This document shows, one piece after another, positions 3,681 through 49,269 of a DNA stretch of 52,977 bases (positions are counted from its first letter, which is position 1; each line of letters starts with the position of its first letter). The position numbers were made by a program, and so were the translations under genes. The notes under the pieces were generated by a model. The model made no database searches. It was not told the origin of the DNA and worked only from the letters and a program-made list of their open reading frames with translations. Origin of the DNA: a virus (taxonomy: Duplodnaviria; Caudoviricetes); IMG/VR virus record IMGVR_UViG_3300020438_000057, positions 1 through 52,977 of that record, one strand, 5' to 3'.

Positions 3681-4121
3681 TCACTTTTCCCATCTATAAA
3701 AAATATGCTTTTCTATTCTTGTTGTTCTAGTTTTAGTTCTAGCCCATCCAGGCTTTACATACGTTGCATGATAGTGTGTAGCACCTTCTGTGACATCTAT
3801 GTTTATTCTATTGTATAAAACAAGATATGCATATCTTTGTGCTTTCTTCCATGCTTTTTCATTTCTTGGTACATCGTCTTTTCCGTCACAGTACCAACTA
3901 AATTGACAACGATGTCTGACTGGATATTGTTTATTTGGATCTTCCCAAGAAGGGCGATGAGGCCCTTGCTTGACTACTTCGCAAACTGAGTTGGGATATC
4001 TACTATCTGCAACTCTGTTCATAACTACTTGTGCTGTAGCAATCTGTCCTATCATTGACTGATTCTTTGCTTCATGATAAGTATTGAGTGCTAAACAAAT
4101 AAATGCTGTTTCTAATATCAT
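3681..4121 (-). CDS. cell wall hydrolase, SleB/Hydrolase_2 family
   Basis: CLALNTYHEAKN, VVMNRV...PNSVCEVVKQ, CQFSWYCDG, GATHYHATYVKPGW, HIFYR. Confidence 0.92.
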   Translation of the reverse strand: MILETAFICLALNTYHEAKNQSMIGQIATAQVVMNRVADSRYPNSVCEVVKQGPHRPSWEDPNKQYPVRHRCQFSWYCDGKDDVPRNEKAWKKAQRYAYLVLYNRINIDVTEGATHYHATYVKPGWARTKTRTTRIEKHIFYRWEK

Positions 4122-4158: not shown

Positions 4159-4635
4159 CTATTTTTTAAACTTGTCGTTCATAGATTCCAGTACACTATC
4201 AATATTAGGTTCTTGTCCGTTGGGATCATATTTACATTGATATTCATTAGGACATTGGCCCTCTACTACCAATGTGTAAGTATCGTTAGCACCTTTATAG
4301 AGACAAACTTGATCACCATTCTTAGCAGTTCTTCTCTTATATCTTCTGCATGTGATATACTTGGGATCTTCACGTTTGCCTAATCTCTTCTCTTGCTCCC
4401 ATGTCCAATCACTAAACTTCTTCATGTAACATGTGAAGCACTGTATTATGTTAGGCGTTTTATTCTCATTATTAAATCTATCACTCCAAGCATAATTTGG
4501 AATGAGAAATGCTAACAATAAAATTATTTTGATTGAAAGTATTAACGAAAGCCTGCGAATAGATGACTTGTATTGAAAACGAACCATGCGAACCAACCTA
4601 GTAATGCAACTATAACTCCAATACCTACAGTGCAA
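4159..4635 (-). CDS. hypothetical Cys-rich exported protein (true start probably downstream of the listed one)
   Basis: Hydrophobic signal-like stretch then six Cys; follows 4542..5036. Confidence 0.6.
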   Translation of the reverse strand: MHCRYWSYSCITRLVRMVRFQYKSSIRRLSLILSIKIILLLAFLIPNYAWSDRFNNENKTPNIIQCFTCYMKKFSDWTWEQEKRLGKREDPKYITCRRYKRRTAKNGDQVCLYKGANDTYTLVVEGQCPNEYQCKYDPNGQEPNIDSVLESMNDKFKK

Positions 4636-5036
4636 ATTATTATATTTAAAATCTTTTCTCTTTGTTTCTCTCTAGCATAAACCATCTCTTGACGTTCTTT
4701 GCGAATCTTACCTTGCATTCGAATCAGTTCGTCCCATGCAGATGCTCCATGTGTAAACATGATGTATTGCTTGAGTTCGTATTCCATCTCCTCTGCTTTT
4801 TTCTTGGCGGCAAAGGCGTTCATTGCTTCTTCTTCTATAGATGAACCATTGAAAACTTTTTTATAGAATGGTGGATTCTTTGCATTCTTCTCTGCTTGAT
4901 TAACATCAGAAATAGCACCCATCCATCTACCAATATCGCCGTACATAGACTCGACATCTTTACCGAGTTGTATACCTTTCTTAATTGCTGAGAATGCAGT
5001 GCCTGCAATGGCCATTGCTGATACTGGATCTATCAT
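4542..5036 (-). CDS. hypothetical membrane protein, late-expressed
   Basis: MIDPVSAMAIAGTAFSAIKKG..., C-terminal TM helix; TATAAATA upstream. Confidence 0.75.
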   Translation of the reverse strand: MIDPVSAMAIAGTAFSAIKKGIQLGKDVESMYGDIGRWMGAISDVNQAEKNAKNPPFYKKVFNGSSIEEEAMNAFAAKKKAEEMEYELKQYIMFTHGASAWDELIRMQGKIRKERQEMVYAREKQREKILNIIICTVGIGVIVALLGWFAWFVFNTSHLFAGFR

Positions 5037-5121
5037 TACTGTTACCTATGACTAATTTAATTGATTATAATGAAACAATCTTAAATGTCACAATACGTAA
5101 TAATATAATACAATCTAGTAG

Positions 5122-5129
5122 TATTTATA
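5122..5129 (-). promoter_or_regulatory. T4-type late promoter
   Basis: TATAAATA on minus strand in intergenic region. Confidence 0.75.
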
Positions 5130-5165
5130 AAAAAAAAGAGCATCAGTGGTAACTGACACTCTTTT
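5129..5165 (-). terminator. Rho-independent terminator of the ncRNA locus
   Basis: AAGAGTGTCAG-TTACCA-CTGATGCTCTT followed by T-run. Confidence 0.85.
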
Positions 5166-5169
5166 CATA

Positions 5170-5390
5170 TTTAGTGTGGGAGGGACTGGCTTATACCCTC
5201 AACTAACACAACAAGATAAGCATATCTTTTTTAGTGTTAGAACTTACTTCCGTCATGTGGTGTTGACGATGTGATCTTGTATGACTAGCCCTTATTTCTA
5301 AGTATTCATCTTTCAAAACCTGGGTACCACCCCTAAGTAATCAAGTTCACTCCTCTTGTCGGTAGAGTTCTTCCTTGCACCACGTTTTTT
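5170..5390 (-). ncRNA. unidentified structured RNA downstream of tmRNA
   Basis: No ORF; at least five hairpins plus long-range pairings GTGGTG/CACCAC and GAACTT/AAGTTC; bounded by a hairpin (5385-5406) and a terminator. Confidence 0.6.
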
Positions 5391-5414
5391 CTCCGTCGAG
5401 AAAAAATCTGTAAT

Positions 5415-5750
5415 TCTGTGAGAGTGTTTCTGTTCCCAAGTACACTCTCTAAACTCGGTGCGATTAAGCCGCTAGTGCATAATCCACAGGTGCAATGTCA
5501 TCGTTTGCATTTAGTTTAATGTTCTCCACTAACCTACTACCTACCTGTCGATCCTATTTCGCCCCCATCAAGAATACTTGTTGATACGCCACTATCAAAA
5601 ATCTCTAAAGTATCTTACTACTCATGTCACAATTAAACGCAGACGCAGAGTTTGTGCTATGAAGGCGTAGTACTGAGCAAGTATTCTTGGTGGAGGCGAT
5701 GGGTACCGCCCCCATGTCCAGTCTAGTTTCATTTAGTCTCAACGAACTCT
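5415..5750 (-). ncRNA. ssrA: two-piece (circularly permuted) tmRNA, alphaproteobacterial type
   Basis: Acceptor piece ends ATGGG-GGCGGTA-CCCAT-CGCCTCCACCA at 5688; coding piece starts GGGGGCGAAATAGGATCGAC at 5566; G3:U70 Ala determinant; tag frame 5508..5464 = ANDDIAPVDYALAA*. Confidence 0.95.
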
Positions 5751-5751
5751 T

Positions 5752-5783
5752 TATTTATAGCATATTGATTCGTGATTCGTCAA
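5752..5783 (-). promoter_or_regulatory. composite sigma70/late promoter for tmRNA locus with tandem TGATTCG
   Basis: TTGACG (5783..5778)-N18-TATAAATA (5759..5752); TGATTCG twice at 5766-5779. Confidence 0.75.
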
Positions 5784-5794
5784 GTCTTTTTTGA

Positions 5795-6172
5795 TTATTT
5801 TTGTGGAGTAAATATCTCCATTCCCCAACCATTACCTATGATACAGGCCCAATCAGCACTTATAAACTCTACTAAACTCCATGTTCCAGTTTCTTTGTTT
5901 AAACCGAATGCTATTGTAGTCTTCATCAATTCACCATTCTCACGTACTGAAACATTGCTCCAAGTCATGATAGGTTGTTCTTTCCATTCTTTTGTAAGTG
6001 TGTGTACAATAAAATCTGGATGCTGACATACAACAGGCTTCATTGCATTTGCTATCTCATCTTTTTCAAACATCTTGTGTAATTTTTTCAAGTCGGGCTC
6101 ATGTTCTCCCCATGACATACTACCACAACTAACATAAAACACAAACACTAATAAACTAAGATATTTTATCAT
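5795..6172 (-). CDS. hypothetical exported protein
   Basis: N-terminal hydrophobic signal; overlaps exonuclease stop. Confidence 0.7.
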   Translation of the reverse strand: MIKYLSLLVFVFYVSCGSMSWGEHEPDLKKLHKMFEKDEIANAMKPVVCQHPDFIVHTLTKEWKEQPIMTWSNVSVRENGELMKTTIAFGLNKETGTWSLVEFISADWACIIGNGWGMEIFTPQK

Positions 6173-6824
6173 GATACTCTCCGTATAACTTTATCTTTTT
6201 TTGTGTAGATAGTATCCAATTGTCTCTCTTTTCTATAAATACTTGAGGACTCTCACCATCTACTGCTATGACTATTACAACTTGATCGATTGGTGTTTTT
6301 GTTCGTTCTTCATACATAACACAATAGGCAGAACCTTGTTGAAAATAATTCGTAATATATTCTTTCTTTTTAAGTTTTCTGGAAGTCTTAAAATCGATGA
6401 CGGAAAGCCTATTATTCCACTCAGCGATACAATCTACCCGTCCAGCGACTCTTAAATAATCTGAATAAAGGGTAGCTTCTTGAACTCTAACATTATTTAT
6501 ATTCTCGGAGAGTATGCCTTTTATAGTGCTGAAAGTTTCTTTGTCAGATGGCATGAACTTCTTTTCATCAAGTTCATTGTTGATAAAGTCTTCGCACATC
6601 TGATGTACTTTAGTACCTCGGCGTGATGCTTGAGTAGATATACGATTGGCCTCTTTTTCACCAACTCGTTGTCTCCACTCATAAATTGCTTTCTTATTGA
6701 AATGTCCTAATACTGTCGTTATAGACGGATACTTCTCACCACTAGGTGTAACATAGTATCTTTTACCATCTACAGTTTGAGTTTTGATTTCAGGTATGTC
6801 AATTCCTAGATGAGTAAACGTCAA
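6156..6824 (-). CDS. PD-(D/E)XK exonuclease (T4-like marine phage exonuclease)
   Basis: YPSITTVL, RRGTKVHQMCE, AGRVDCIAE...IDFKTS, YFQQGSAY. Confidence 0.88.
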   Translation of the reverse strand: MTFTHLGIDIPEIKTQTVDGKRYYVTPSGEKYPSITTVLGHFNKKAIYEWRQRVGEKEANRISTQASRRGTKVHQMCEDFINNELDEKKFMPSDKETFSTIKGILSENINNVRVQEATLYSDYLRVAGRVDCIAEWNNRLSVIDFKTSRKLKKKEYITNYFQQGSAYCVMYEERTKTPIDQVVIVIAVDGESPQVFIEKRDNWILSTQKKIKLYGEYHDKIS

Positions 6825-47669: not shown

Positions 47670-47869
47670 CCCTCTTGTAAGTTATTGAAAAAGCTAGGTA
47701 TTTTCCCATTGAATCCATAACCACAATTGAGTCTATCAATAAGTGATTCGTTTTGTTCTTTACTTTCAGATTTCCAGACTTTCTGATTTGTCTTAGTATC
47801 ATAGACATAGTATATGCCTTTATGTCTTTTACTAATATACTGTTTATTCTTTTTTCTAAACCATCTCAT
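47666..47869 (-). CDS. hypothetical protein
   Basis: LNCGYGFNGKIPSFF; follows gene 41. Confidence 0.7.
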   Translation of the reverse strand: MRWFRKKNKQYISKRHKGIYYVYDTKTNQKVWKSESKEQNESLIDRLNCGYGFNGKIPSFFNNLQEG

Positions 47870-49269
47870 ACTTTTAATCCCGTAAAGTCTTTTTTACCTT
47901 TTTTAATTTTAACTTCTTCTTCTACTCTTTCACCGAATTGAGTATTATCAAATACTGGCCCATCAAGGACATCACCTTGTGCAGATTGCTCTACATCGTA
48001 GAGTCGCATCTTAGCCCTATCAACACCAAGAACAAATCTTTTATATAGGGTAGGATCATTATATCTGTTCTTGAGTTGTTTCACCATTATCTGATTTAAA
48101 TCTTCAAGTTCTTCAGTAGATATAAGAGCAAACATAAAATCAGCAGTTGCAGGTAAACCAAAAGATTCAGAAGTATCTTCTAAGCCTAAATCTGAATTGG
48201 TAAAACCACTTCTTGTAGTTTGTGTTGCAGATAATATAGGAAGATTTTTTTCTACTGCAAGGCCTCTAAGTTCTTCTGCTATAGATTTTATCAAAGTATA
48301 TGAGTTTACATTTGAACCAGTCTTTATTCTATGAGACATACAAATATTTAAATAGTCAATATAGATGATATCTGGCATAAACTGCCTCTTTAATCTAAGT
48401 TCATTTAGAAGATGTCTAAAATGCCCTACATGAGCAGAGGCAGTAGGATATTCTTTTACAATTAATTTACCACTAGTTTTACCTTTTACCCTATCAATCT
48501 TTTTATCATACATCTGTTTTGGTAAATTTATTAATTCTTCTAGAGAAACATTAAGTAAGTTAGCATCTATTCTCTCTGCGATTTTTTCTTCTGCCATTTC
48601 CATAGTAATATACAGAACATTTTTACCTTCAAGCAAATTAGCTGAAGCCATATGGCACATTGCTAACGATTTACCAACGCCCGTACCAGCGAGTATAATA
48701 TTGAGCGACTTTTTAGGTAAACCACCTTTGGTAATTTTATTAAGGTAATCCAAATCGAAAGGAATACGTTCTTCAACACGGTGATAAAAATCCCAACGAC
48801 TATCACTATCATCAATAAAGTCGTGCCCAATAGAAGGATCAAAGGAAATAGACAGAGCATCAGAGAGAAGTTCTGGTATACTTCCTTTGTCTTGTTTATC
48901 TTTACCATCGATAATAGATATTGATTCCATAATTGCATTGTAAATAGCCTTTTCTTGGCAAAACTTTTCAGTTTTTTCTATTAACCATTCTTTGTCTGTA
49001 TCTGGATCTGAGTTGAGTTCAGATACTATACTAGAACATTTACTGAAGCTTTCATCTGTTATAGATGAATTATTATCAAGTTCAATTAACAATGCTTCTT
49101 TTGTTGGCAATGCATTGTATTGTGACAAATATTTATCTATCTCTTGATAAATTGATTTCTCATTTGTTTCTGAAAAATATTCTGCCTTGAGATAAGGCAG
49201 AGTTCTTCTTGCATAATCTTCTTCATTAAGAAGATGTTTAAGTACTACTAGTTCAATCCTGTTCTGCAC
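47866..49269 (-). CDS. 41: replicative DNA helicase gp41
   Basis: AGTGVGKS, ITMEMAEEKIAERIDAN, IDYLNIC, ATQTTR, SESFGLPATAD, KQLKNRY. Confidence 0.97.
   Translation of the reverse strand: MQNRIELVVLKHLLNEEDYARRTLPYLKAEYFSETNEKSIYQEIDKYLSQYNALPTKEALLIELDNNSSITDESFSKCSSIVSELNSDPDTDKEWLIEKTEKFCQEKAIYNAIMESISIIDGKDKQDKGSIPELLSDALSISFDPSIGHDFIDDSDSRWDFYHRVEERIPFDLDYLNKITKGGLPKKSLNIILAGTGVGKSLAMCHMASANLLEGKNVLYITMEMAEEKIAERIDANLLNVSLEELINLPKQMYDKKIDRVKGKTSGKLIVKEYPTASAHVGHFRHLLNELRLKRQFMPDIIYIDYLNICMSHRIKTGSNVNSYTLIKSIAEELRGLAVEKNLPILSATQTTRSGFTNSDLGLEDTSESFGLPATADFMFALISTEELEDLNQIMVKQLKNRYNDPTLYKRFVLGVDRAKMRLYDVEQSAQGDVLDGPVFDNTQFGERVEEEVKIKKGKKDFTGLKV

Follow-up and report, generated by a model that had tools for sequence, protein, structure and literature searches.

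Which RNA lies beside the transfer-messenger RNA (tmRNA) gene on the minus strand of IMG/VR virus record IMGVR_UViG_3300020438_000057, and does it act on the gene that follows or as an RNA in its own right? The whole stretch of 52,977 nt was analysed (hereafter, the window), and an earlier note, made from its letters alone, had pointed to a structured, independent noncoding RNA at positions 5170–5406 on the minus strand that it could not assign to a family. We found that the family is a known one. When the window was scanned against Rfam with cmscan, RF01745 (manA RNA) matched at 5171–5403 on the minus strand, within 3 nt of the limits proposed earlier, with 61.8 bits against a gathering score of 55.2 and an E value of 2e-13. 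The match is full length (model positions 1–192 of 192), with a margin over the cut-off of only 6.6 bits, and even at E ≤ 1 it is the single manA copy in the window. It is near certain that the element belongs to this already described family. The earlier note had itself named an Rfam scan, with manA among the motifs to look for, as a check and a strong hit to a known family as the outcome that would remove novelty; since the match lies above the gathering score, the RNA itself is, by that criterion, not novel. What is new is its genomic setting, in which tmRNA, transfer RNA (tRNA) and manA follow one another.

The window copy shares with the RF01745 motif the pseudoknot helix joining the 5′ and 3′ parts, the GUGGU(G/A) and ACCA loops, the GGGUA...UCCC 3′ hairpin, and its occurrence in a marine T4-like phage. 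Unlike a typical manA, it follows a tmRNA (plus a tRNA in relatives), and downstream of it lie an independent terminator and then a gene with promoter-like boxes of its own. The habitual position in the 5′ untranslated region (UTR) of a protein gene, which is a contextual and not a structural criterion, is not seen in the window because the tmRNA lies 15 nt upstream, while a terminator, promoter-like boxes, and then an open reading frame (ORF) 135 nt away lie downstream. Relative to the family, there is an insertion of ~25 nt in a variable hairpin (5320–5273). As had been stated, the RNA contains no ORF on the minus strand; the only overlapping ORF of at least 40 amino acids (aa) is a 42-aa GTG frame on the plus strand (5146–5274). 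At E ≤ 1, the window shows no match to the Rfam models RF03087 and RF01998, which we take to be those of the ROOL/GOLLD type.

A leader or riboswitch model fits this locus poorly, because the upstream neighbor is a stable-RNA gene, because terminator and aptamer are not in competition, because separate promoter-like boxes precede the next gene, and because in relatives a tRNA needing 3′-end processing ends 8 nt from the first base of manA. These four points of context lead us to the reading, which we consider somewhat better than an even bet, that manA here is the last cistron of a stable-RNA operon and is released as a discrete RNA of ~230 nt. The operon would run from a promoter-like site through a two-piece tmRNA and, in close relatives, a tRNA-Gly to manA and an intrinsic terminator (Table 1). 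Processing of its primary transcript would most likely fall to the tmRNA and tRNA maturation enzymes, and the product would be a tightly folded RNA of ~230 nt closed by the 5′–3′ helix GUGG/CCAC. This RNA may then act as a free particle via loop–loop contact, which is the best-supported lead and would imply oligomers in cells. A parallel worth following is found in the tRNA cluster of phage T4, where the small stable RNAs C and D are co-transcribed and co-processed with tRNAs.

Table 1. Positions of manA, its helices and its neighbors in the window, with the matching contigs from RNA libraries
Feature	Positions	Strand	Remarks
manA RNA (RF01745)	5171–5403	minus	cmscan, full model
P1 hairpin UUUCUC-GACG-GAGAAA	5388–5403	minus	model positions 1–16; present in the minimum-free-energy fold
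Closing helix (Rfam pseudoknot), 5′ strand GUGG	5380–5383	minus	pairs with CCAC 5176–5179
CUCU hairpin	5367–5349	minus	conserved register CUCU/GGAG
Hairpin GGG-GUGGUA-CCC	5322–5333	minus	loop GUGGUA at 5330–5325
Hairpin CGUCA-ACACCACA-UGACG	5251–5268	minus	loop ACACCACA at 5263–5256
Hairpin CUAACAC/GUGUUAG	5240–5203	minus	confirmed
Hairpin GAGGG/CCCUC	5200–5180	minus	confirmed
Closing helix, 3′ strand CCAC	5176–5179	minus	pairs with GUGG 5383–5380
Intrinsic terminator	5133–5166	minus	15-pair stem, loop of 4, then T run; begins ~5 nt after manA
Promoter-like region of downstream gene	5064–5129	minus	TATAAATA box and sigma-70-like site
Downstream gene, 164 aa (phrog_32327)	4542–5036	minus	hydrophobic C-terminus; ORF 135 nt beyond manA; supposed regulated gene
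Permuted two-piece alpha-type tmRNA	5419–5786	minus	tag ANDDIAPVDYALAA; RF01849 94.6 bits, RF04321 85.6 bits; ARAGORN tmRNA*
Promoter-like TTGACG-18 nt-TATAAA before tmRNA	5754–5783	minus	by eye; missed by the scan for want of the final T in the second hexamer
X3, metatranscriptome, study P3	5173–5394		222-nt contig, 0 differences, depth 33.9
X7, metatranscriptome, study P3, another sample	5189–5400		212-nt contig, 0 differences, depth 30.2
X2, possibly DNA	5052–5452		401-nt bridging contig, depth about 3
X1, oligo-dT, may contain DNA			all 30 bins covered, low depth

Covarying secondary structure of the RNA

Folded as a single sequence, 5125–5406 reaches −80.3 kcal/mol (z = −3.96), a stability matched by 0 of 200 shuffles, and the fold reproduces the family architecture plus a separate terminator. 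Covariation was assessed on an alignment of 15 manA sequences, with limits set by Rfam, using MAFFT and RNAalifold; P1 was misaligned in A1 and is excluded from the counts. RNAalifold found eight helices and recovered those of Rfam. Standard pairs fill 97.9% of 585 cells (shuffled mean, 76.9%), 28 of the 39 pairs are changed on both sides (shuffled mean, 17.1), and none of 500 shuffles reaches any of the five measures used. When the 3′ partners were slid by 1–3 columns, pairing fell to 33.5–52.6%. The structure tested was derived from the same alignment, and it agrees with the independently curated structure of Rfam. Covariation among homologs, which had been suggested as a second check, is thus evident from these compensatory pairs, which also keep the multi-stem junction of the family in the window.

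The family pseudoknot, in which the strand after P1 pairs with the 3′ tail, is formed in the window by GUGG/CCAC, where 4 of 4 pairs are changed on both sides and 100% of the cells are paired. Two further long-range helices are present: CAAG (5377–5374) with CUUG (5345–5342), which the alignment supports, and UUACUU (5340–5335) with AAGUAA (5249–5244), in which 6 of 6 pairs are compensatory. P1 occurs in relatives in the compensatory variants UUUCUC/GAGAAA, UACUCU/GGAGUA and AUACCC/GGGUAU, and what had been taken for a spacer hairpin at 5385–5406 delimiting the RNA is instead this covarying first helix of the motif. Four of the five hairpins described in the earlier note stand (GGG/CCC, CGUCA/UGACG, CUAACAC/GUGUUAG and GAGGG/CCCUC), and the fifth, the CUCU hairpin, is real in another register than the CUCU/AGAG then proposed.

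Two pairings from the same source had to be given up. That of the 5′ GUGGUG with the ACACCACA loop is paired in 75.0% of 48 cells (shuffled, 73.7%), with letters for three of its six pairs in the window only, and was rejected in favor of GUGG/CCAC with the 3′ tail. The helix GAACUU/AAGUUC is paired in 87.8% of cells (shuffled, 88.9%), has no pair changed on both sides, overlaps two covarying helices, and was likewise rejected. The suggestion of a ribozyme found no evidence in this analysis.

The locus, its close relatives and the RNA libraries

The gap between the tmRNA match and manA is 15 nt long, and a scan of it in the window returned no promoter-like or terminator-like site. Together with the 8-nt spacers of relatives (see below), this fits the view put forward earlier of an independent structured RNA that would be co-transcribed with the tmRNA. 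The start of such a transcript may presumably be the TTGACG-18-TATAAA site, read from the sequence. By eye, a TATAAATA box at 5759–5752 (minus strand) overlaps the promoter-like region of the tmRNA; we take TATAAATA to be a T4-type late promoter motif.

On the other side of manA, the terminator that had been placed at 5129–5165 was confirmed at 5166–5133, with 15 pairs and a T run, and is the only terminator-like site in 4900–5900 (shuffled mean, 0.4). In both the minimum-free-energy and the centroid structures it folds independently of the complete manA fold, with no strand shared, so that the competition between terminator and aptamer that marks a riboswitch is not seen in the window. It is kept in the tmRNA–manA relatives, at the same place with a different sequence in one of them (L012), and the manA–terminator spacer of ~5 nt in the window measures 2–19 nt in relatives. 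Directly after the terminator, by eye, comes a second TATAAATA box (5129–5122, minus strand) that is conserved in L004, L005, L006, L007, L008 and L012, followed by a sigma-70-like site, GTGACA-16-TATAAT at 5091–5064 (minus strand), matching the consensus at 11 of 12 positions. The 164-aa gene beyond it follows manA in eight loci. Its protein has a weak, sub-threshold DUF2207_C match, and the gene stands two genes before one for a cell-wall hydrolase, PF07486, at 3681–4121 (minus strand), with which it may form a lysis cassette.

The source record is 29% complete by CheckV estimate. Its genes are of the T4-like myovirus type (PhoH, PDDEXK exonuclease, gp59-like helicase loader, gp32, 2OG-Fe(II) oxygenase and endolysin), its gp32 is 55–58% identical to those of the listed Kyanoviridae phages, and its manA region is syntenic with Methylophilales phage Melnitz. 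Relatives of the locus were collected through the neighboring exonuclease gene, which gave 80 virus loci. A tmRNA follows in 50 of them, 49 of which have at least 300 nt beyond it. In 8 of these 49 (L004, L005, L006, L007, L008, L012, L013 and L014), manA comes directly after the tmRNA, with 63.1–76.2 bits by cmscan, and in five (L004, L006, L007, L008 and L012) a tRNA, identified as tRNA-Gly by ARAGORN, is placed between the two with 8-nt spacers on both sides; the window and L005 are without it. The manA region is 80–96% identical among relatives, with the changes concentrated at paired positions. The longest context comes from a 146.6-kb relative (G009, loci L208–L215; CheckV, 76% complete), in which the only tmRNA, the only tRNA and the only manA-like site cluster at 47777–48460. 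This only tRNA, a tRNA-Gly at 48154–48227 between tmRNA and manA, has the anticodon ACC by ARAGORN, which is unusual for bacteria. In the L013/L014 lineage, sequence similar to the intervening segment of the tmRNA gene is found again downstream of manA (L014, 7931–7984; L013, 3939–4070), which hints at a rearrangement or at insertion of manA into the tmRNA region.

Two broader searches have limited reach. A genome-wide RF01745 search picked up manA in no more than 2 of the 50 related virus records, while direct cmscan of the same places (including G005 and G009) gave 63–68 bits, and the negatives of that insensitive search were not taken as absence. When 5100–5800 was compared with 50,697 phage records by blastn, only the tmRNA part of four Melnitz records matched, with no manA homologue found by sequence.

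Melnitz resembles the window in its PhoH gene, PDDEXK nuclease, small ORF and two-piece alpha-type tmRNA, and in having a structured RNA within 8–15 nt of the tmRNA 3′ end. In Melnitz, unlike the window, this appended RNA is a glutamine riboswitch aptamer (RF01739, ~50 nt) rather than a manA (233 nt), an order reported in the accessible text of Buchholz et al. (2022, PMC9004378) and confirmed here, with RF01739 at 3371–3419 of L002, 8 nt after the tmRNA. The genome-wide search, insensitive as it is, showed no manA above cut-off in Melnitz.

As for expression, ten RNA-labelled public runs contain part of 4900–5900, and four of them were compared with 4300–6500 (Table 1). In X3 and X7, a contig covers manA only, the flanking bins 5040–5113 and 5410–5483 having a depth of 0; the tmRNA piece 5542–5714 has a depth of 4.69 in X3. 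Parts left uncovered in X2, X3 and X7 are not evidence against transcription there. The manA-only contigs hint weakly at accumulation of manA as an RNA of its own. X7 also contains a 235-nt contig, with a depth of 1069, that matches only the tRNA-like parts of the tmRNA (5547–5571 and 5685–5713) and has 43 other letters between them instead of 113; it probably represents a different and very abundant permuted tmRNA, from a host or another phage.

manA in other phage lineages

How general this setting might be was examined in a family sample based on a single 16-nt pattern, taken from the conserved hairpin that we call L5 (loop GUGGUA), which returned at least 120 further virus loci. All of these have a manA-like match to a hidden Markov model built from the clade of the window. 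When seven sampled loci were rescanned with Rfam at lower stringency, six gave full-length matches of 45.0–55.1 bits (among the matches listed, as are all counts from this sample here and below), and L168 gave no manA match at E ≤ 0.01. Counts were made on 78 distinct full-length sequences (114 loci), or on 77 after removal of L191, which starts inside manA.

A promoter-like site (TTGAC-N15-19-TANNNT) ends 7–19 nt before manA in 54 of 77 distinct loci, compared with 23 of 1000 random windows, and this count is a lower bound, several loci with a near-consensus TTGCTT −35 having been missed, by eye, by the strict pattern. A hairpin with a T run within 100 nt downstream (ΔG ≤ −8) is present in 41 of 77 vs. 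45 of 1000 controls; this supersedes a cruder count of 69 of 105 (ΔG ≤ −6, 200 nt, without control or de-duplication). A tmRNA 3′ end lies within 90 nt upstream in 11 of the 78 sequences. In three loci of other lineages (L155, L146 and L113), tmRNA and then manA are found with gaps of 2–11 nt, confirmed by Rfam, and the manA of L116 is embedded in an array of five tRNAs on its own strand. For most of the 127 rows scanned, ARAGORN reported neither a tRNA nor a tmRNA gene. A general link between manA and tRNA or tmRNA, as a rule of the family, was rejected on the 11 of 78 sequences with an adjacent tmRNA and the 8 of 49 tmRNA loci with manA.

The genes downstream are diverse, encoding proteins of ~153 aa (43 loci), 135–139 aa (11), 164 aa (8) and 89 aa (7), a nucleotidyltransferase with a cupin (4), and Csp-like (cold-shock), Hsp20-like, gp32, ligase and other products; in four loci (L104, L161, L188 and L195), the 450 nt downstream are free of same-strand ORFs. 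manA is widespread in abundant ocean phages, including Pelagibacter phage Mosig, an isolated SAR11 phage amenable to laboratory culture. Its manA, missing from the annotation, scores 64 bits (MT647606.1, 108164–108371, minus strand; within 2475–2760 of L206) and lies between a hypothetical gene and a rubrerythrin gene, with a promoter-like TTGACA-17-TATATT overlapping the end of the upstream coding sequence. Our literature search, with most subscription-journal papers outside its scope, turned up no paper that places manA beside tmRNA or tRNA or treats it as a stand-alone RNA gene.

Loop contacts and the competing explanations

If manA is released as a free RNA, its loops suggest what it may do. 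GUGGUA is invariant in 15 of 15 aligned sequences, partly by selection, the loop being within the 16-nt search pattern, and its counterpart in the Rfam consensus is a conserved GUGGUG. The stem CGUCA/UGACG covaries (5 of 6 pairs changed on both sides), and the loop at the position of ACACCACA contains, by eye, UACC or ACCA in 12 of the 15. The ACCAC of this loop is complementary to GUGGU at 5330–5326. The two loops of the window correspond to the GUGGUG and ACCA of the family consensus, the second and weaker "pseudoknot?" of Weinberg et al. (2010), with no loop variation in our sample because the pattern includes the loop. In the accessible part of a preprint of July 2026 (bioRxiv 10.64898/2026.07.01.735769), cryo-electron microscopy of manA RNAs is described as showing octamers, pentamer-based decamers and a 60-subunit, icosahedral-like cage of pentamers, which self-assemble in vitro and are held by an L5–L7′ kissing loop that both variant sets share and by further contacts between loops. 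Judging from 5′-to-3′ helix order, the GUGGUA loop would be L5 of the preprint and the ACACCACA loop its L7. The complementarity of GUGGU and ACCAC suggests that the RNA of the window could make the same L5–L7′ contact.

This leads to a wider and more tentative proposal, on which we would bet only at well below even odds, that manA RNAs are free-standing phage RNA genes rather than riboswitches, with their own early promoter and terminator or within tmRNA/tRNA operons, accumulating in infection and assembling via loop contacts into closed particles. If so, manA would be the small-RNA counterpart of the ROOL and GOLLD cages, and its genomic association with tmRNA and tRNA would suggest a function in the translation machinery during infection. 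According to the available sections of Kretsch et al. (2025, PMC12286853), ROOL and GOLLD RNAs are phage encoded, often lie near tRNA islands and form cages. Like manA, they are thus pseudoknotted phage RNAs, often beside tRNA genes, reported to form closed RNA-only cages in vitro; unlike manA, they are three to four times longer and unrelated in sequence and structure, the resemblance being one of possible working and not of membership. The tmRNA–tRNA–manA cluster and the promoter and terminator statistics make a testable argument against the "cis-regulatory" label held since 2010.

Several observations weigh against reading manA as a free RNA, at this locus or across the family. As far as the accessible part of the preprint goes, cage assembly took place in vitro with RNA and Mg both at high concentration, and the work is unreviewed (bioRxiv 10.64898/2026.07.01.735769). 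Our sample represents one sub-family, partly just under the Rfam cut-off, with 13 of the 27 loci scanned with Rfam reaching the gathering score (10 of 15 plus 3 of 12). A same-strand ORF lies within 450 nt in almost all loci, starting 11–22 nt after manA in L014, L146, L113 and L130, and promoter, aptamer and terminator in a row are also what a transcriptional riboswitch looks like. The order in Mosig (promoter-like site, manA and, 29 nt downstream and without a terminator, the rubrerythrin gene) is leader-like. The tmRNA link is not general, since 41 of the 49 related tmRNA loci are without manA. Finally, both manA-only contigs come from one study and show neither RNA ends nor levels, their breaks could stem from strain variation at the junction where the tRNA is present or absent, and X2 (possibly DNA) and X1 (oligo-dT) also cover the flanks of manA.

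The strongest rival, which we nonetheless consider unlikely, is a classical cis-acting riboswitch, in which manA would bind a metabolite and control read-through of the 5166–5133 terminator into the 164-aa gene. This has been the published view of the family from the start: in its accessible text, Weinberg et al. (2010, PMC2864571) describe manA, from marine metagenomes, T4-like cyanophages and two gamma-proteobacteria, as a motif with one firm and one doubtful pseudoknot and as a probable cis-regulatory riboswitch candidate, found in 5′ UTRs of mannose/fructose, nucleotide, ibpA and photosynthesis genes. Rfam types RF01745 as Cis-reg, and a later cyanophage paper repeats the riboswitch-candidate view in the part accessible (PMC9964418). 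Genes such as those for nucleotidyltransferase plus cupin, Hsp20-like and cold-shock proteins and gp32 would suit such control, as would the terminator-like sites that immediately follow manA in 41 of 77 loci, and the leader-like arrangements in Mosig and L014 agree with it, members of the Mosig type being the main reason for the weight we give it. At the locus in the window, however, terminator and aptamer form together in both predicted folds, promoter-like boxes separate the terminator from the 164-aa gene, and the upstream neighbor is a tmRNA or tRNA, not a promoter. Across the sample, the genes that follow manA vary widely, and in four loci the next 450 nt contain no ORF on the same strand; our literature search turned up no manA ligand; and both the manA-only contigs and the oligomeric cages described in the accessible part of the preprint (bioRxiv 10.64898/2026.07.01.735769) sit badly with a leader. 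The phrase "riboswitch-like" in the earlier note therefore agrees with the published guess for the family, while the context argues against a switch for the downstream gene here.

A second possibility, which we regard as quite improbable, is that manA is an accessory 3′ domain of the tmRNA precursor that controls or protects tmRNA maturation or stability. It draws on the recurrence of tmRNA–manA adjacency in several lineages and on Melnitz, whose slot 8 nt after the tmRNA holds the glutamine riboswitch aptamer that Buchholz et al. (PMC9004378), in the text accessible, read as tmRNA control. It does not account for the 66 of 77 distinct manA-like loci that lack an adjacent tmRNA, the 54 with a promoter-like site of their own, or the 41 related tmRNA loci without manA. 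Moreover, an element 3′ of an RNA gene cannot gate the transcription of that gene, a tRNA separates tmRNA and manA in relatives, and the manA contigs in the RNA runs exclude the tmRNA. That the structure consists of chance hairpins or is a non-functional remnant, for which nothing speaks beyond the AT-rich intergenic setting, can be dismissed in view of the Rfam E value, the z score, the compensatory pairs and the conservation among relatives, with its changes concentrated at paired positions.

Other structured RNAs share these neighborhoods. A freshwater-2 RNA (RF02980) lies after manA in L183 (156–238), L156 (4741–4820), L202 (2579–2651), L172 (6498–6570) and L088 (4605–4692), so that manA often belongs to a run of several structured RNAs. 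In L183 and L156 it stands beyond the manA terminator; in L183, L156, L202 and L172 it precedes, by eye, a gene for a protein of ~143–221 aa beginning MGRP; and in L088 it is ~570 nt away from manA, with a different ORF in between. RF01739, besides its place in Melnitz, lies between tRNA and manA in L148 (11054–11101) and L199 (3376–3423) and upstream of manA in L183 (766–814), L159 (230–279), L172 (5889–5939) and L164 (2291–2341). The slot after tmRNA and tRNA genes seems to collect structured RNAs.

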